Of a stretch of 64,000 nucleotides of DNA, positions 6,346-46,844 are shown piece by piece (within the stretch, counting starts at the first letter, position 1; every line of letters starts with the position of its first letter). A program made the position numbers and the translations under genes. The stretch is taken from IMG/VR virus record IMGVR_UViG_3300019371_000265, positions 32,001-96,000 of that record. One strand, written 5' to 3'. The stretch is from a virus. Its lineage: Duplodnaviria > Caudoviricetes. Under the pieces are notes generated by a model, which was not told the origin of the DNA, did not search any database, and saw only the letters and a program-made list of their open reading frames with translations.

Positions 6346-6414
6346 ATTTTATTTCAATCTATATTTATATATTACTCCTCTTAAATAGCAATGTCAAGCA
6401 TTTTATTTCAATCT
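6346..6414 (-). promoter_or_regulatory. SigA promoter flanked by two AGATTGAAATAAAAT boxes
   Basis: TTGACA(6397-6392)-17-TAATAT; boxes 6346-6360 and 6400-6414. Confidence 0.75.
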
Positions 6415-6993
6415 ATTAAGCAACTCATCTAAGCGACTCTGACTGGCGGATATAGATGCATGCAGCGACTCAATCTCTTTCAATCTCTCACGTTCTTCCT
6501 TCTCTTTTAAGAGTTCTTCGTTGACTCTATAGAAGTCATCTTCATAATCCCAGTATGAATGTTCGTCTCCTTGCCACCTATAATCCATCAATAAGCATGT
6601 CTTACTTAGCCTGAGAGCTGGAGCTTGCCAATCGCAATCATGACCACAGCAGTCTTTGTCTTCTCTGTAATCTTCGTCTCCTAGTTTACACCAACAATAG
6701 CCGTCACCAGGTCTTAAATCAATAAAAATTTCAAACTCATATGTACAATTTGATAAACTAACCAAAATTTTTCCAAGTGATAGATAATCTTTTTCGTCAT
6801 TTACAATATACCTAATGTCATAAAATTCAGACCCGCATAAATCGCTTAAGAATTCACTATCTGGATTTTTTTCCAATGATTGTTGTAGTGTTGCCAATAT
6901 AAAAGGAATATCTATTTCATCATCGTGTTTATCGTGTTCATAAGTTAATTCTTTTATAACCTTGTTAATAAAATTGCTTACATTATTTTCCAC
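6403..6993 (-). CDS. Acidic Cys-containing hypothetical protein
   Basis: ORF with GGGGA RBS. Confidence 0.7.
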   Translation of the reverse strand: MENNVSNFINKVIKELTYEHDKHDDEIDIPFILATLQQSLEKNPDSEFLSDLCGSEFYDIRYIVNDEKDYLSLGKILVSLSNCTYEFEIFIDLRPGDGYCWCKLGDEDYREDKDCCGHDCDWQAPALRLSKTCLLMDYRWQGDEHSYWDYEDDFYRVNEELLKEKEERERLKEIESLHASISASQSRLDELLNRLK

Positions 6994-12181: not shown

Positions 12182-12295
12182 ACCTATTACCTATCCCTTC
12201 TCCATCAAATACGAATTTTACATCATCTGTTAACGTGCTACATCTTTCGCATTATCTCTCCTTTTAGTTTGCAACATTTTATTTCAAATTATCAG

Positions 12296-12367
12296 CAGGG
12301 CTAGTTGGATTTGAACCAACGAATGCAGGAGTCAAAGTCCTGTGCCTTACCGCTTGGCGATAGCCCT
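12296..12367 (-). tRNA. tRNA-Gln (TTG)
   Basis: Cloverleaf: acceptor agggcta/tagccct, anticodon arm cagga-ctTTGac-tcctg, T-arm gttgg-ttcaaat-ccaac. Confidence 0.95.
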
Positions 12368-12872: not shown

Positions 12873-12932
12873 TGTATTTTTTCGAACACTGTAAATTTTA
12901 TTTCAAACTATTAAGATGGCAACAGGAGTTGC

Positions 12933-13979
12933 CTATTTATAATAGATGCTGCTCATGATATATGGTCTATAAATTTTTCTAACATCAGTGCCTTTCAATT
13001 TATCTCCAAATTTTTCAGATATTTCTTGTAAAATCTTACACCATTCATCATTTTTATAATCATCGTATTCTACAAATATTTTGCAGAAATTAGTATCACT
13101 ATAATTGTACAATTGTCTTCGCGCAAAGTTTACGAATCCGGATTTATGAAGTAAATCTATGTTTATGTCATCATATTTAGATCCGTATGTTCCATTAATC
13201 GAAAGTAAATGTGGAATTATATCCCGAACATCTTTTGAAATAATTTTTTGTAGAACCACCTTCTTATCTTCATTGAAAGTTTCTATATACTTTTGTAAGT
13301 CCATAGTTTCATTGATTTTGCTTTTAATTAATAATCCATGAACTGACATTAATCTTAATTGATCCAAGAGAACCTTATCTTTTGATACCCTTACTTTAAT
13401 ATATACATTGTCATTAATATATCCATTTATATATGAAAAAAGTAGTTCAGATCCATGAAAGACCCTATTTTTAAATCGAATTGTATTCTCGTCAAAATTC
13501 ACATCGGTTAATTTTATATTCGCAAATTCTTTTGCGTTCCGTATACCCTCAAAAAATCCATACACCAGCATACCATAATAATTTTTATTGTATTCAATGT
13601 CTTTAATAATGTTACGTATGTCTTCCTTGTACAGTATCTTAATATCCTTCTTCTCAATTAGCGTGTTAATCAACATCTTTTGCGATAAGGCATCAAATTC
13701 AGCGAATGGATTTATAAAAGTGTATCCATTATTCACACACCATTCAAAAAATTGGTTCAGGTAACTGATGTTTTCCATGAGATATTGCATGCTCTTAGTT
13801 TTACCACACATATCTTCGATGATTAAATCAACATATTCTTTCACCTTTAAATTAAACAAATCCTTCTCATAAATATATGGCTTCATTAAAAAGGCCTTCT
13901 GTTTATCAGTATATTTCTTGTAATTACAAAAATCTTCTATCATTTTCTTATAGTCTTCTACCGTATATTTAGTACTCAT
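12933..13979 (-). CDS. MrpR/YopR-like lytic repressor (tyrosine-recombinase fold, catalytic motifs degenerate)
   Basis: FFEGIRxxxEFxNIKLTDVNFDENTI; LHKSG in place of HxxR; own promoter with operator box. Confidence 0.65.
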   Translation of the reverse strand: MSTKYTVEDYKKMIEDFCNYKKYTDKQKAFLMKPYIYEKDLFNLKVKEYVDLIIEDMCGKTKSMQYLMENISYLNQFFEWCVNNGYTFINPFAEFDALSQKMLINTLIEKKDIKILYKEDIRNIIKDIEYNKNYYGMLVYGFFEGIRNAKEFANIKLTDVNFDENTIRFKNRVFHGSELLFSYINGYINDNVYIKVRVSKDKVLLDQLRLMSVHGLLIKSKINETMDLQKYIETFNEDKKVVLQKIISKDVRDIIPHLLSINGTYGSKYDDINIDLLHKSGFVNFARRQLYNYSDTNFCKIFVEYDDYKNDEWCKILQEISEKFGDKLKGTDVRKIYRPYIMSSIYYK

Positions 13980-14008: not shown

Positions 14009-14051
14009 ATCATATCACAATAATAGGAAAAGGTCAATTTTATTTCAATCT
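14009..14051 (-). promoter_or_regulatory. Promoter of MrpR-like gene with operator abutting -35
   Basis: TTGACC-17-TATGAT; box 14037-14051. Confidence 0.7.
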
Positions 14052-14475
14052 ACATTGCATAAGAAAATGCAAATGAAAACTGTAGTTTAATCGCGTCGCA
14101 TATACGATTTATAACATTTCCATCTTTAATTTCTCCAATCTTACGATATAGACATTCCTTGGGTATAGAATCTGGGCTTTCAATGAGTAAAATACTATCG
14201 CTTTTCAATCCATTACAATCATCTGATGGCATATACACATGAACTGGCGACATCTTGTTTATTTTGGATGAAATCGGATAAATATTTACTTGTGAAGAAA
14301 ATTTATTAAACGTATCGTTAGACATTACCAAAACCGGTCTTCTTCCATACTGCTTGCTGCTCTTGATCCTGTCTTCTGTTTTAGGAATATAGGCATCCCA
14401 AATTTCCCCTCCTAATGGAGTAGGTATCCTCCTATAATTGTCGTCAATTCTATTTTCATTGTGCATATTTCTCAC
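14050..14475 (-). CDS. PemK/MazF-family endoribonuclease toxin (no adjacent MazE)
   Basis: GEIW...QYGRRPVLVMSNDTFNK...PISSK...GLKSDS. Confidence 0.85.
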   Translation of the reverse strand: MRNMHNENRIDDNYRRIPTPLGGEIWDAYIPKTEDRIKSSKQYGRRPVLVMSNDTFNKFSSQVNIYPISSKINKMSPVHVYMPSDDCNGLKSDSILLIESPDSIPKECLYRKIGEIKDGNVINRICDAIKLQFSFAFSYAM

Positions 14476-14575: not shown

Positions 14576-14598
14576 TTAGTAATTACTAACTTAATGAG

Positions 14599-14644
14599 AG
14601 TATAGCACATAAAAATATTAATGTCAACAATTTTATTTCAATCT
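14599..14644 (-). promoter_or_regulatory. mazF promoter with operator box
   Basis: TTGACA-17-TATACT, extended -10; box 14630-14644. Confidence 0.8.
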
Positions 14645-14645
14645 A

Positions 14646-15581
14646 TTACTTTATTTTTTCTTCGATGGATTTCATGATGTCATTGATAAAATCAATATGG
14701 GATTCTGCATCACAATCGGCGTTTTTAAGTCCAAATTTATATGCGTCTGCGAGTGCATTGCGTAAGTCATTCATGTCAAGTGATACTACATTGCTGTTTG
14801 AACTATTTACGATTTCATTATCTCCCTCTGCATATTCTACGAAGAATTTTCCCATATCTTCCAAGTATTCGTTCACTCTTTCACGAGTAATTCCAACATA
14901 CGCCATTGTTTGTTCGAGAGTACCATGCCCGAACATTGCGCTTACAATCATAAGTGCTCTTGGATCATTTGGGTGTAAATCAATTAAAGTTTTGCCAAGA
15001 AATTTTCGTGTACTATGCGTGTTTACGTTATAGGTTACTCCAACGCTTTTTGCAGCTTTCTTCATGTTCTGTCCACATTGTTTGAGAGTAAATAAGTCAC
15101 CTGGATGAGTATTGCCTCTATTTAGAAAAACATATTGATCATATTCTTCCATTGGCTTGATATCAAACGCCGAGCAATATAACCTTATTGCATTTCTCAC
15201 AGCTTCATTGATGTATGGACTTGCAAATTTATCCGTCTTTTCTTCTTTTATTGTAAGAATTTCCTTTCTAAAGTGACCATTTGGAAGGAAAAATCTTCTC
15301 CAAGTAAAAAGTCTAGTATCTCCGGCTCTTCGTCCCATATTGCAACCAATTACAAACCATAGATAATTTTGCCACATTTTGTGTTCTTTAAAAAATTTAA
15401 GTATATTTCTTGCATCTTCAATAGTAAATGCATAAACTTCAGCTTGTTTGCCTGGCTGCTTATTTAGTACTTTTCCATTTTTAGCATATAACATTTGATT
15501 ATCCACTACAATATAATCATATCCCATTTCTTCATCAAATTTCACATCGTACTCTTTTTTCTTATATGTTATCTTGCTCAT
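14646..15581 (-). CDS. Tyrosine recombinase/integrase (catalytic set intact)
   Basis: GRRAGD (R), KEEKT (K), HSTRK (HxxR), FGH...TMAY (H, Y); start MSKIT after AAGGAG. Confidence 0.88.
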   Translation of the reverse strand: MSKITYKKKEYDVKFDEEMGYDYIVVDNQMLYAKNGKVLNKQPGKQAEVYAFTIEDARNILKFFKEHKMWQNYLWFVIGCNMGRRAGDTRLFTWRRFFLPNGHFRKEILTIKEEKTDKFASPYINEAVRNAIRLYCSAFDIKPMEEYDQYVFLNRGNTHPGDLFTLKQCGQNMKKAAKSVGVTYNVNTHSTRKFLGKTLIDLHPNDPRALMIVSAMFGHGTLEQTMAYVGITRERVNEYLEDMGKFFVEYAEGDNEIVNSSNSNVVSLDMNDLRNALADAYKFGLKNADCDAESHIDFINDIMKSIEEKIK

Positions 15582-15621
15582 GACTGCTCCTTTCTGCGTC
15601 AAATGTCACATTGACTGACTG

Positions 15622-32864: not shown

Positions 32865-33856
32865 CTTTAATTCAGTTGTACACAACCAAATATATCCGAA
32901 CGATTTTATATGTCTGACAACTCGCTCCATTATCAATCCACCTGACACAATATTTTGACCACTATATCAGGAATTACTACCAATATTATCACCTGATTTA
33001 AGCCATTCACAACGTTCTTTTATGATGGAAAACCACGTTACCATGAAACAATGCCCATAGGTGGGGGATATTTTACATTTGAACCGGACTAATACCAGGT
33101 CAAAAGTCGTCTATCTATTCCACGCACACCTCACCTATAATTTTCCATTATTGTCAGATAACTCACCATCAAATTTACCCAAATACTTCGGATATACCTT
33201 CGAGCAGTACCCATATTTAAGCCAAAAAATGAATTGTGTCTCACCTCACACAATTTAAAATGACCACTCAAACACCCAACAAATCCCATAGATAAGCCAG
33301 ATTCTCGAACCCGACCACTTTTTACATTATCCACCAGATCTGCTAAATAATTAATTCAGAAATATTACTTCTCATACACCCAACAAACGTAACTACAACA
33401 AGCGTTTCTTCCATGTTTTAGATCATAATTTCAACCTCTCTCCCGAACCCTGGCTATTTTAATTTTAATACAACTCACTTCACCAAGTTAAACTAAATTG
33501 TACACAAAATGATACACAATATTACTGAATCATGCCTCCAGCATCAAGCACTTCCTATATATAAGCCAAAAATAAATGTGTTAAAATTTATACATCTACA
33601 GACACCTCTCAGCAGCTATATATATCACCCATATAAATCTAATATCCCATCTAATTACCACTCTCTCATTACCATAATACTCACAAAGCGTTATATGACA
33701 CGTAAATCGTCTTAACCTCTCATTGGCACATTTATCCACTGAATCTATTTTGAACGGAATATGAGTATCATATGACGGTCAAACAACTATATTCTTCTTA
33801 TGTCTATATAACGCCAGTTCAGCAGCAAGAATATAGGTGTAAAAATTAATTTTAAT

Positions 33857-33929
33857 AGTTTGAAATAAAATGTTGACATGGTGATATATGGGTGCTATAC
33901 TATGGATAGGTAATAGATGGAAATAAAAT
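33857..33929 (+). promoter_or_regulatory. Major rightward SigA promoter flanked by two operator boxes
   Basis: AGTTTGAAATAAAAT 33857; TTGACA-17-TATACT 33873-33901; AGATGGAAATAAAAT 33915. Confidence 0.8.
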
Positions 33930-35915: not shown

Positions 35916-36236
35916 ATGCCAAATTATAAGAAATTAACAAGTGTAGAGGTATCTGTAAATGAGAATTATGCAATTATCGCAGAAGTAAATAATGATGAAG
36001 TAGATACAAATAAATTCCACTGTGATTTATGGATTCAGGATACGGAAGCTGGTTTAAGAATCCTGATCAAAGAAAATGTAATCGTAAACTCATCTCCCGC
36101 TTCTATGTGCGACAAGGTTGCAGGATATCTTGAAACTCTGATTAACAATGGATATTTCAGCGATGATGTCAAGACTATGGAAAACTTTATCAGCTACGTC
36201 GAAAAATTAAAAGACACTGTTAATAGTTTGAAATAA
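35916..36236 (+). CDS. Hypothetical protein
   Basis: AAGGAG RBS; stop inside operator-like box 36225-36239. Confidence 0.7.
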   Translation: MPNYKKLTSVEVSVNENYAIIAEVNNDEVDTNKFHCDLWIQDTEAGLRILIKENVIVNSSPASMCDKVAGYLETLINNGYFSDDVKTMENFISYVEKLKDTVNSLK

Positions 36237-36255
36237 AATTGATCGATTACATAAA

Positions 36256-36341: not shown

Positions 36342-39335
36342 ATGAACAATATAAATAGAGATGTTCGTTCAAAATACTCTACATATGGGAACGGGAAATC
36401 CATAATTGAAATTTTGAACATAGGATTTGAGCCACTATTAACAAAAAGGGAATACAGGATATACAAAGAAATCGGTGAGATTAAGTATAGAATCAATCCA
36501 TATAAAAAATCGCTTGCATTTATTGAATCAAAATTAGAAGATCCAAGTAACTCAAGTTATTATAATAAATGGCTTGAAGGATGGATTCCAGCATTAAAAG
36601 GCAAACTTAAAATTCTAAAAGACATTGAAAAGAAAAAAGATGATCAATTCAGAACTTTGCTTGCCAAAAACATTAACAAATGCCGCACATTATATACAAA
36701 GAGAGAATTCAAAAACGAGGATCAATTTCGTAATATCAAGATTTTTGAAAGTGACTTAACACGGTGTTTTGGTTGTAAAGACATAGAGCACAGCGATGAT
36801 ATTATAAGTGTGGTTACATACTATACTGAAATTTTTGATTCAATTATACATAATGGATTTTATTACAAGGGTAAAAAGTTCGTATTCTTCACAGCTGGAG
36901 CAGGACAGACACGTTGTAAAAAAAGCACATTCGTTTCAGAAGACAAACTAAACGAAAACTTTAACCGTCTTTTCTGTGGACTCACCAGAGAAGAAATAAA
37001 CAGACAAGGGGGTATGAATACAAATAAATACTTGGCATACACCAGTCTGTGTCAAACTAATAGTGAGATTTGGTCAGATTTCAATATTGATAGAGCAATT
37101 GTTGTTGATGATATAGAATATCAGGTTCCAGATCAGCAAGTTAGATATATTTATACTGAAAGTCCAGAAGACAAAGAAAAAGTAAGATTGCTACAAGACA
37201 AAATTGACGACATAGACAATAGGCTAAGTCTGATAAGAGAAAATAGAAAATCTCGCCCAAGGGGGTGTAGACGTAAGAAAGACGAGATTTTGTTGGAGAA
37301 ACAAGAGGTATGTCAAAATACAAATCAGAAAGTGTTTTTGATTGGTGAGATAAACAAGATAAAGTCAAAATATCACAAGTCTGAGATTAAAAATATGCCA
37401 ATCACCATTCCATTTACCGATGGATTTGGCATTTCTCTTAAAAAAACGGATTCATCAATGATAAGGTTGCCATTTATCAAAGGATTAATTGCTTACTGTC
37501 CTCGCAGAGTATTTATGAATTGGTGTTCAGAAAATAATATTCCAATACACCAAATTGTAGATATTTATGGTAAAAAGCATTCGATAACTGATGTGGATTA
37601 TATTCTAACTAAATCACAATTTAAGATGTGGAAGTATTATAACAACATAGAAGATGTTGATGGCAATGTGATTCAAACTGGATGGGAGGTTTACAAGGAG
37701 AATTTCAAAAAATATAAATGTGATGCTTGTCGTTGCAACGTAGAAAGACATGTGAAATTAAACGCCAAGACAAATTATCAAACGCTACTTACTCTCACCA
37801 CAGAAATGACTGATGATGATATTCTTGAATTATCAAAATATGATATAACTAACTTAAACAGCATTGGTCGTAATGTGAACTCAATGTTAAATGTACTGGG
37901 AGCCGACGAAAAGAAAAATGACAATCTCACATGGTTGCAGAAATCATTGATTATTTATCCTGAGATGTTAAAGGATTTTTATGTTAGAACTCTATTGAAA
38001 AACACCAAAGATAGTATGATCAAAAAAATGAGAAGCGGAAAATTTAATATAAATGGTGCCTATACATTCGCTATACCAGACACATTAGCATGCTTGCAGT
38101 GGTGGTTTACTGATACGGACAAATCGAATTTAGATAATTTTGGTTTTGTAAAAGAAGGTAACGTTTCTTGTGGATTATTTGATGACGAGGAAGAAGTTGA
38201 CTGTCTCAGATCACCACATCTTGACCACGCCCACTGTATTAGAAAAAATCAAACTGATGAAAATTCTAAAAAGTGGATTAAGTCATCTGGCGTATATATC
38301 GCTATGAAAGATATAATGAGCAAACTTCTTATGTACGATAATGACGGAGACAAATTGCTCTTACATAATAACAAAACTATAATCAATTGTGCTAAATCGT
38401 TCCAAAAAAAATACGGTATGATCCCAAACTATTATGATATGCCAAAGGCCAATCCACAATTATTAACGAATAATTCTTTATTTGAAGGTATTGTTATGGC
38501 TTATCATCATGGCAATATTGGAACCCCCAGTAATGAAATAACAAAAGTTTTTATGACTTTAAATCCTAATAGTACAAGAGATGAAATTATGGAAGCTATC
38601 GATGTTGTTGCGCTGCGGTGCGCGGATGTGAACTATACAATTGACTTCGCAAAGACCTTATACAAACCAACTATTCCAGACGATGTAATTGCAAGATATA
38701 AAAAATATAGTGGCAGGAAAGTACCTCATTTTTTTATTCATGCGAAGAATAAAAAAGCAGATCAAGTTGAAAAAATTGGAGAATGCAATATTGATAGAAT
38801 TTCAAATGTCGTAAAAAGTAATCGGATTGTTTTCAAGGATTTACTAGGATCTTATTCTTATAAAATGCTCACAAGTGATCCAGAAAATGTTGTTGATATT
38901 AACGAAGGTAAAGCGGTTGAAATCTTAAATTTATATAATGAACTAAACGGCGTTAATATTAGGAAATTGTCGCATTTAGATGTGGATTCTATGGAGATTG
39001 ATGAAAAGAAAAAAACTCAGCTTAACTTGGAATATGATTCAAAGAAACAAAGAGATTTATTTTTAGAAATAGTAAACGAGTCGGTAGAATACATAACAGA
39101 TGTGCTTGTCAAAGGGTTACAAAATGATGTAAATAAAGACACGCTGTGGAGATTATTTGGAGACGTTATTTATAGTAATCTGGAAAGGAATTTAAAGGGT
39201 ACAAAAATATGCTGTAAATGCAATAATAGATTTAATTCCAATAATAATAAAATGAAATATTGTATGAACTGTGCATATGAAAATCAATTGAATTTAACAA
39301 AGAAATATAAAGAAAAGATCAAATCTTGCATCTAA
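36342..39335 (+). CDS. yonO: YonO-like single-subunit DNA-dependent RNA polymerase
   Basis: YDNDGD catalytic motif, TAGAGQTR, TDGFG, RLPFIKG, LRSPH; C-terminal CxxC..CxxC. Confidence 0.88.
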   Translation: MNNINRDVRSKYSTYGNGKSIIEILNIGFEPLLTKREYRIYKEIGEIKYRINPYKKSLAFIESKLEDPSNSSYYNKWLEGWIPALKGKLKILKDIEKKKDDQFRTLLAKNINKCRTLYTKREFKNEDQFRNIKIFESDLTRCFGCKDIEHSDDIISVVTYYTEIFDSIIHNGFYYKGKKFVFFTAGAGQTRCKKSTFVSEDKLNENFNRLFCGLTREEINRQGGMNTNKYLAYTSLCQTNSEIWSDFNIDRAIVVDDIEYQVPDQQVRYIYTESPEDKEKVRLLQDKIDDIDNRLSLIRENRKSRPRGCRRKKDEILLEKQEVCQNTNQKVFLIGEINKIKSKYHKSEIKNMPITIPFTDGFGISLKKTDSSMIRLPFIKGLIAYCPRRVFMNWCSENNIPIHQIVDIYGKKHSITDVDYILTKSQFKMWKYYNNIEDVDGNVIQTGWEVYKENFKKYKCDACRCNVERHVKLNAKTNYQTLLTLTTEMTDDDILELSKYDITNLNSIGRNVNSMLNVLGADEKKNDNLTWLQKSLIIYPEMLKDFYVRTLLKNTKDSMIKKMRSGKFNINGAYTFAIPDTLACLQWWFTDTDKSNLDNFGFVKEGNVSCGLFDDEEEVDCLRSPHLDHAHCIRKNQTDENSKKWIKSSGVYIAMKDIMSKLLMYDNDGDKLLLHNNKTIINCAKSFQKKYGMIPNYYDMPKANPQLLTNNSLFEGIVMAYHHGNIGTPSNEITKVFMTLNPNSTRDEIMEAIDVVALRCADVNYTIDFAKTLYKPTIPDDVIARYKKYSGRKVPHFFIHAKNKKADQVEKIGECNIDRISNVVKSNRIVFKDLLGSYSYKMLTSDPENVVDINEGKAVEILNLYNELNGVNIRKLSHLDVDSMEIDEKKKTQLNLEYDSKKQRDLFLEIVNESVEYITDVLVKGLQNDVNKDTLWRLFGDVIYSNLERNLKGTKICCKCNNRFNSNNNKMKYCMNCAYENQLNLTKKYKEKIKSCI

Positions 39336-46327: not shown

Positions 46328-46590
46328 TGTGATGTATTTGTATCATGTGATAAATATATCACTGTGTTGGTAATGTGTCAATAGATAATTTAATAAATTT
46401 TCAAGTTGGAATTCGGAGACTTTAAACCTATGCCATCGGAACAGAAAATTCTAAATCAGTGTGGTACTACTTAGTGTACGATTCAAAATTTGGTGTTTCG
46501 CAGCCATTAAGTGAGAAACGTTAAATCTTTAATTAGTGAATGACTGCTGTGCGGTCAAATTAGGGAGAGTTCGATACTCTCCTATTTTAT

Positions 46591-46664
46591 TGGAATGTAG
46601 TTCAGTTTGGTGGAGCGCCTGATTTGGGATCAGGAGGTCGCAGGTTCGAATCCTGTCATTCCAA
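46591..46664 (+). tRNA. tRNA-Pro (TGG)
   Basis: Acceptor tggaatg/cattcca; cctga-ttTGGga-tcagg; T-arm gcagg-ttcgaat-cctgt. Confidence 0.95.
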
Positions 46665-46844
46665 TTGTCAGACAGTCACTATATGGCTGTCTTTTTTATT
46701 ATGCAAATATGAATAGAATCTTGGACTTCATTAGTCGGTATTTGCTTCGTGGAAGAACATGTGACTTTGCAAATCATATGGGTATGGAACTCCAACATAC
46801 TCTTCCCCTATTACTAATTTGGAGTATTATTTAGGAGGATAATA

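Follow-up and report, generated by a model that had tools for sequence, protein, structure and literature searches.

The closest described counterparts of the locus reported here come from phage SPbeta, in which YopP, with an integrase domain, and YopQ, with a ParB domain, are encoded in one operon beside the repressor YopR (PMC8612738). The repressor MrpR keeps three of seven catalytic residues, the other four having been lost, and shows no recombination, and the element termed SPBRE is found at ten SPbeta promoters (PMC10516654). For SroF, a protein of the same kind, the binding site is an asymmetric 26-bp box, which it occupies as a monomer (bioRxiv 10.1101/2025.11.27.690993). YopP, which is also designated SroD, belongs to the yopMNOPQR (or sro) operon, and there, as in the case described below, an integrase-family gene lies near an MrpR/SroF-type repressor in a large temperate phage that encodes YonO. 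To our knowledge, SPbeta-type phages represent the only known case of an integrase fold that has been turned into a master repressor.

The stretch of DNA analysed here (the window, 64,000 nucleotides in length) corresponds to bases 32001-96000 of a 126,319-bp IMG/VR provirus, the parent contig of which is 321 kb long. Because a YonO-type RNA polymerase is encoded within it (Table 1), the phage is regarded as a distant SPbeta-like phage. Genes that lie between position 1 and approximately 64 kb run leftward, and those beyond that point run rightward. On the right, the host boundary lies at approximately position 120984 of the genome, where genes for an acyltransferase, SpoIID and a glycogen phosphorylase are found; on the left, a 445-residue integrase (PF00589 at 88.9 bits, accompanied by a SAM-like domain) is located just outside the end of the record, and is followed by host-type genes. 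The recombinase gene that is the subject of this report, P0001, is approximately 47 kb from the nearest prophage end, and a preliminary description of the same DNA, which had placed it in the middle of an arm with no attachment junction nearby, is borne out by the fact that host genes are met only from that boundary rightward and, leftward, beyond the 445-residue integrase. Since a separate integrase is present at the host junction, P0001 is a second recombinase, and it is not the prophage integrase. Both that integrase (L046:11758-13095) and the left attachment junction fall outside the IMG/VR provirus boundary, the record having been trimmed short of the phage's own integrase.

Table 1. Features of the P0001 locus and its surroundings (positions in the window)
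Feature	Position	Strand	Basis and remarks
P0001, tyrosine recombinase	14646-15581	-	Translation, PF00589, phrog_216, AF2, conserved catalytic residues
Shine-Dalgarno sequence AAAGGAG of P0001	15587-15593	-	Read from sequence; 6 nt upstream of ATG
Junction-motif copy of the P0001 leader, sense GTCAATGTGACATTTGAC-GCAGAA	15592-15615	-	PWM scan, 27.9 bits; includes the 18-mer at 15598-15615
ParB/Srx-type (GmrSD_N) gene, 178 aa	15622-16158	-	PF03235 at 52 bits; directly upstream of P0001
Operator-like element TAGATTGAAATAAAAT	14630-14645	-	Starts one base past the P0001 stop codon
Sigma-A-type promoter TTGACA-17-TATACT	14599-14627	-	Reads into the PemK and MrpR-like genes; same in L006 and L007
MazF/PemK-like toxin gene, 141 aa	14050-14475	-	PF02452 at 58.7 bits; phrog_1936
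P0008, MrpR/SroF-like integrase-fold protein, 348 aa, probable repressor	12933-13979	-	ESM Atlas, PHROG, positional equivalents
YonO-type RNA polymerase gene	36342-39335		37% identity to SPbeta YonO

The minus-strand open reading frame that contains P0001 extends over 14646-15602; translation most likely begins at the ATG at 15581, the same methionine at which close orthologues all open with MSKI or MSKIT, and yields a protein of 311 residues. The match of this protein to the Pfam family Phage_integrase (PF00589) is narrow, at 28.0 bits against a cutoff of 27.1, whereas phrog_216, a family that PHROGs names 'integrase', matches it much better (E 4e-23). An exhaustive HMMER search with a threshold of E<=1e-3 recovered 1061 cluster representatives, of which 309 also passed E<=1e-10; most are approximately 300 residues in length and align to residues 37-308 of P0001. 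No match was obtained in a sequence search of the PDB, nor were the Pfam domains MrpR_N_CB and MrpR_C_cat detected in the protein.

Across an alignment of 54 sequences, which are 25-76% identical to P0001, the residues R85, D88, E113, K115 and Y228 are invariant, and R84, H189, R192 and H219 are at least 90% conserved. The catalytic set of P0001 comprises R85 (within GRRAGD), D88, K115 (within EEKTDK), H189-S-T-R192, H219 and Y228, and the same catalytic residues were present in nine of nine further phage homologues that were checked, including short forms of 191-264 residues; such short family members, which are found in small phages, adjoin a terminase gene rather than a repressor. The complete R-K-HxxR-H-Y set that had been claimed at the outset is therefore correct, and its retention across the 54 relatives and the nine additional homologues indicates that the catalytic set is under purifying selection.

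An AlphaFold2 model of P0001, built on the 54-sequence alignment, reached a pLDDT of 93.2 and consists of five beta strands (residues 3-34), a catalytic domain (approximately residues 46-250) and a C-terminal helical hairpin (residues 270-309); a helical SAM-like core-binding domain was found neither in the model nor in the Pfam scan. When the catalytic domain was compared with those of active recombinases, the highest likeness was to XerA (Z 17.3, with an rmsd of 4.5 over 179 residues), followed by lambda Int (16.4), IntI (structure 2A3V, with an overall likeness of Z 16.3) and Cre (15.8), while scores were lower for phi3T SroF (12.6), SPbeta MrpR (12.3) and poxvirus topoisomerase IB (12.0); Foldseek agrees on the tyrosine-recombinase fold, with a probability of 1.00. 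P0001 thus has in common with XerA/XerH, lambda Int, IntI and Cre both the fold (Z 15-17) and the R-D/E-K-HxxR-H-Y active site, and is unlike all of them in possessing a five-strand beta domain of approximately 35 residues and a C-terminal helical hairpin. On the evidence of the model, P0001 belongs to an uncharacterised subfamily in which a small N-terminal beta domain is predicted to replace the usual helical core-binding domain. With MrpR, YopR and SroF (PDB 8A0A, 9RD5) it has in common the superfold (Z 12.3-12.6) and the same genomic neighbourhood; P0001 is, however, closer to Xer, lambda Int, IntI and Cre than to MrpR and SroF, and the degenerate active site of the MrpR/SroF family is not seen in it, since seven of seven catalytic residues are kept.

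The genes that surround P0001 are those of an immunity region. Directly upstream is a gene for a 178-residue protein that consists of an N-terminal ParB/Srx-like domain alone (GmrSD_N/DUF262, with the sequence DGLQR), without the usual nuclease half; SPbeta and the window both carry a ParB/Srx-type gene nearby, and no counterpart of this particular gene was found in the related loci examined, so that it is unique to the window phage. Downstream of P0001 are a MazF/PemK-like toxin gene, near which no obvious antitoxin reading frame was seen, and the gene for P0008. A promoter precedes the latter two genes (Table 1), and because it separates them from P0001, the recombinase gene lies outside the repressor operon. 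In Bacillus arbitrium phages, the host MazF participates in the lysis-lysogeny decision (PMC10769878), which makes a phage-borne MazF-like copy notable. The trio of recombinase, PemK and a gene of approximately 330 residues recurs in the related loci L003-L008 and L025/L026, and in L024 two genes of that size directly follow the recombinase, with no PemK match. Among these equivalents of P0008, the MrpR_N_CB domain passes the Pfam cutoff in L005 (58.7 bits), L024 (41.5 and 35.4 bits) and L025 (47.5 bits).

The assignment of P0008 itself draws upon several kinds of comparison. A Pfam scan gave no match and a sequence search of the PDB returned nothing, hhalign comparisons with YopR and with P0009 were not significant, and the AlphaFold2 model of the protein is poor (pLDDT 49.6). 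In the ESM Atlas, P0008 obtained a score of 0.98, with MrpR_N_CB/MrpR_C_cat present in 25 of its 30 nearest clusters, 190-197 shared features, and a structural TM to MrpR-type clusters of up to 0.67; in addition, PHROG 1 (phrog_1) matches its core-binding region (E 1e-6).

The element TAGATTGAAATAAAAT, one copy of which follows the P0001 stop codon, occurs 13 times in the genome at two or fewer mismatches, and most of those copies are found at sigma-A-like promoters; several pairs bracket a promoter, with one copy upstream of the -35 hexamer and one just past the -10. Further minus-strand copies in the window are located at 14037-14052, 12895-12910, 12276-12291, 6400-6415 and 6346-6361, and plus-strand copies at 33856-33871, 33914-33929 and 36224-36239. 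In L003/L004, the MrpR-like protein of which is 49% identical to that of the window, the same positions carry TAAC(A/G)(A/T)GAAATAAAAC (six copies), and each version is absent from the other phage group. The promoter-bracketing logic is the same as that of SPBRE, and the element has the look of an SPBRE counterpart that changes in step with its repressor. Given this covariation, P0008 rather than P0001 is the likelier integrase-fold regulator, and TAGATTGAAATAAAAT rather than the junction motif discussed below is the likelier operator. The preliminary description had allowed, as a fallback, that P0001 might be a regulatory integrase-fold protein like those of the SPbeta yop cluster; the neighbourhood was rightly recognised, in that an MrpR/SroF-like neighbour is present, but the degenerate regulator is probably P0008, and the active site of P0001 is full. 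A perfect 14-bp palindrome, TTAGTAATTACTAA, is also found at 14576-14589, just downstream of the -10 element of the promoter of the PemK and MrpR-like genes; L006 and L007 have it too, and a dimeric regulator may use it as an operator.

The succession of recombinase, MazF-like toxin and MrpR-like repressor echoes yopP-yopQ-yopR, although the gene order differs and the MazF-like gene stands in the place of YopQ. By virtue of that arrangement, P0001 would correspond to SPbeta YopP (SroD) in position and in domain, and is a fixed neighbour of MrpR/SroF-type immunity genes. The likeness between the two sequences is slight: BLASTP searches against YopR and YopP gave nothing significant (E 0.04 for YopP), and the hhalign probability of 82.6% covers the catalytic domain only and reflects a generic likeness. 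The two proteins also differ in construction, YopP having a SAM-like helical core-binding domain where P0001 has a beta N-domain, and in their active sites, which is altered in YopP (D->A and RII->K) and complete in P0001. The explanation that we favour, with belief and doubt evenly balanced, is that P0001 is a functional recombinase that goes with the immunity region and is analogous to YopP/SroD. With its fold, active site and synteny as described above, and with a separate integrase encoded by the same prophage, P0001 is most likely active and most likely plays an accessory role in the lysogeny-control region. It would clamp phage DNA between its beta domain and its catalytic domain, would cut and rejoin that DNA via Y228 at a putative phage site, and would act as an accessory factor either of lysogeny control or of phage-genome processing.

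A single phage here contains both states of the fold, namely a catalytic-type and oddly built recombinase and a degenerate MrpR-like protein with putative, co-varying operators, with a MazF-like toxin gene between them. If P0001 contributes to the lysis-lysogeny switch, it may show how recombinases entered regulation, and the YopP/SroD class, of which little is understood, would gain a role open to experiment; if its work is confined to resolving or processing phage DNA, its presence is ordinary.

That last possibility corresponds to the first of the alternatives, which we consider unlikely: that P0001 behaves as a Cre/Xer-like enzyme, using a single dedicated site of the phage either to resolve multimers or to make the genome circular, in the way that Cre uses P1 loxP. 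The intact active site agrees with such a role, as does the identity of the nearest annotated phage relatives, which are 'integrase' or XerC/XerD genes of C. difficile phages such as phiCD38-2, which is kept as a plasmid, and phiSemix9P1, the record of which is circular. The window phage, however, is an integrated prophage with its own integrase, and out to 5 kb from P0001 no candidate core site was seen, nor anything like lox or dif with inverted arms of 11-13 bp; a search near the gene for an invertible switch or for lox-like inverted repeats returned only weak, chance-level pairs, and no conserved non-coding site was found upstream of the recombinase in distant relatives.

Two further alternatives involve a repeated motif, one copy of which is found in the P0001 leader. 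The 'perfect site' that had been reported just before the ribosome binding site is indeed present, as GTCAA-N8-TTGAC at 15598-15615, 16 nt 5' of the P0001 ATG (the plus-strand 18-mer GTCAAATGTCACATTGAC is exact), although the term 'perfect' covers two 5-bp arms only; exact matches to this pattern number two in the window, against 0.06 expected, and three in the 126-kb genome. The sequence forms part of a 24-nt junction motif, for which a position weight matrix (PWM) was built from the motif copies and sites were counted at 18 bits or more. The resulting scan identified 42 minus-strand sites and only 4 on the plus strand, between positions 498 and 60490 of the genome. Judged by information content, the motif is composed of three polar blocks, GTAAAA - N5 - ATTTGAC - RGNGAA, the third of which continues straight into the purine-rich leader and Shine-Dalgarno region of the next gene; the spacer is free and carries no information, the arms are 5-6 bp in length, and the mirrored positions, which are mostly non-complementary (3 and 16 hold A/G in 22 of the 42 sites), show no covariation (Fisher p = 1.0).

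The placement of the motif is similarly regular. A start codon follows 8-35 nt downstream in 33 of 41 copies, with a median distance of 20 nt from TTTGAC to the start codon, and in 15 of 42 copies the TAA stop codon of the upstream gene falls inside the left block; in all, a copy precedes approximately one quarter of the arm genes (33 of 137 crude gene calls). Because the motif is so widespread in the arm, its occurrence in the P0001 leader says nothing about P0001 specifically: it is a generic early-arm junction element, and not a dedicated recombination site. The lack of covariation between the arms further implies that dyad symmetry is not what selection maintains, and that copies of the 'perfect' form are rare. 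A comparable arrangement is that of the PeSLs of T4-type phages, which Arbiol et al. (2010) reportedly described as 'mobile regulatory cassettes', each made up of a promoter and a stem-loop, that are shuffled by homologous recombination. Like the junction motif, PeSLs are short, repeated expression signals that lie 5' of numerous small genes, in an early region that is both hyperplastic and mosaic; unlike them, the junction motif sits between a stop codon and a Shine-Dalgarno sequence. The motif was also considered as a promoter for the YonO-type polymerase, and was rejected in that capacity, SPbeta YonO using a single, late promoter only (PMC5467207).

It appears distinctly improbable that P0001 is purely regulatory, acting without catalysis as an auxiliary repressor that, for example, clamps as a monomer upon the 24-nt junction motif and thereby blocks the early arm. 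The motif is polar and similar in length to the 26-bp box of SroF, and the P0001 gene does lie within the immunity region; SroD, moreover, is said to have been called an auxiliary repressor by Brady et al. in 2023. Such a role would nevertheless have to be reconciled with the presence of seven of seven catalytic residues throughout the family, as against the four lost in MrpR and the D->A and RII->K changes in YopP, and with the existence of family members, 30-41% identical to P0001, that are found without a motif array.

The preliminary description had preferred to view P0001 as the best candidate for a cassette recombinase, that is, an integron-like enzyme for which the repeated motif would be the place where 'site-RBS-ORF' units are excised, inserted or shuffled; we rate this as very unlikely. 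It had suggested that co-occurrence of this recombinase clade with the repeat be checked across phages, and in one respect that relationship holds, in that all of the array-bearing phages (the window, L003/L004, L006 and L007/G006) carry a P0001 orthologue of at least 75% identity. Besides the window, dense arrays were found only in L003/L004, L006 and L007, the recombinases of which are 75-76% identical to P0001, and a weaker, AT-shifted array is present in L005, which has a 51% identical orthologue; within 21 kb around P0006 in this 25%-GC relative, the pattern ATAAAW-N6-WTTTAT occurs at 9 sites against 1.7 expected, with a Shine-Dalgarno sequence and start codon following in 6 of the 9. The array-bearing phages nevertheless form one lineage, and hence represent one event, and the recombinase family extends much more widely than the array. 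No window-type array was found in L008-L028, the recombinases of which are 30-41% identical to P0001, nor in SPbeta, and the recombinase module is present without an array in L008, L024 and L025. The nearest YonO relatives, G001-G004, which as fragment records carry little weight in this comparison, showed no array, and have recombinases that are only 21-29% identical. Scans with the motif pattern yielded 87 single, chance-like matches and no new array-bearing phage among IMG/VR viral contigs, and two distant relatives only among genome contigs. G006 was considered as an independent background and rejected, since its structural genes are 90-99% identical to those of the window's genome and it belongs to the same lineage, with yonO replaced.

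The arm is highly mosaic, with 14.6 of 62 kb aligning to G006 in 21 blocks, and 12 of the 42 block ends have a motif no more than 30 nt away, where chance alone would give 2.0. When breakpoints were counted per junction, however, they were found at 8 of 36 motif-bearing and 16 of 101 motif-less junctions (p = 0.45); mosaicism of the arm follows gene boundaries in general. A local rearrangement is seen at the P0001 leader itself. In L003, L006 and L007, the leader copy of the motif (spacer GTGACA, flank GCAGAAA) precedes an extra 84-residue gene that is located before the recombinase (L003:9731-9985, with equivalents in L006 and L007) and is absent from the window; in L003 the 18-mer and the GCAGAAA that follows it are unchanged, and in L006 and L007 they are nearly so. 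Loss of that gene joined the 3' flank of the motif, GCAGAAA, to the Shine-Dalgarno sequence of the recombinase, and this indel has its junction outside of the spacer, 7 nt past the 3' end of the 18-mer core.

The form of the motif also argues against recombination of cassettes. The overlap regions of tyrosine-recombinase core sites must normally match, and arms of 5-6 bp on either side of an unconstrained spacer are a poor fit to such a site, and are too short for hairpins of the attC type; structured, imperfect inverted repeats with conserved pairing, as in attC sites, are not seen in the motif. To this may be added the uninformative spacer, the mirrored positions that vary independently, the conserved 3' block that merges into the leader of the next gene, and the stop codons that fall within the left arm. 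When distant loci were searched for further junction motifs by Gibbs and k-mer methods, nothing convincing emerged. Between them, the polar motif, its free spacer, the absence of any breakpoint preference and the array-less family members leave the cassette-recombinase designation unsupported, and we accord very little probability to the idea that P0001 acts upon the approximately 42 polar junction motifs so as to make the early arm a phage 'integron', or, in a milder version, that it silences the arm in the lysogen as a monomeric clamp.

Least credible of all is a second integrase with an alternative attachment site, which the tyrosine-recombinase fold, the active-site residues and the PHROGs label 'integrase' might suggest, but which is opposed by the distance of the gene from the nearest prophage end, by the canonical 445-residue integrase at the junction, and by the lack in P0001 of the arm-plus-core-binding architecture of lambda Int.

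Two additional features of the phage may be recorded. It carries tRNA genes for tRNA-Gln(UUG), at 12295-12367 on the minus strand, and for tRNA-Pro(UGG), at 46590-46665 on the plus strand. In the near-identical G006, where the flanking genes are 84-98% identical, the position that corresponds to the YonO gene (G006:48423-49034) shows 28% identity, with a 554-residue frame, and it appears that the phage RNA polymerase gene was exchanged there or has degenerated.
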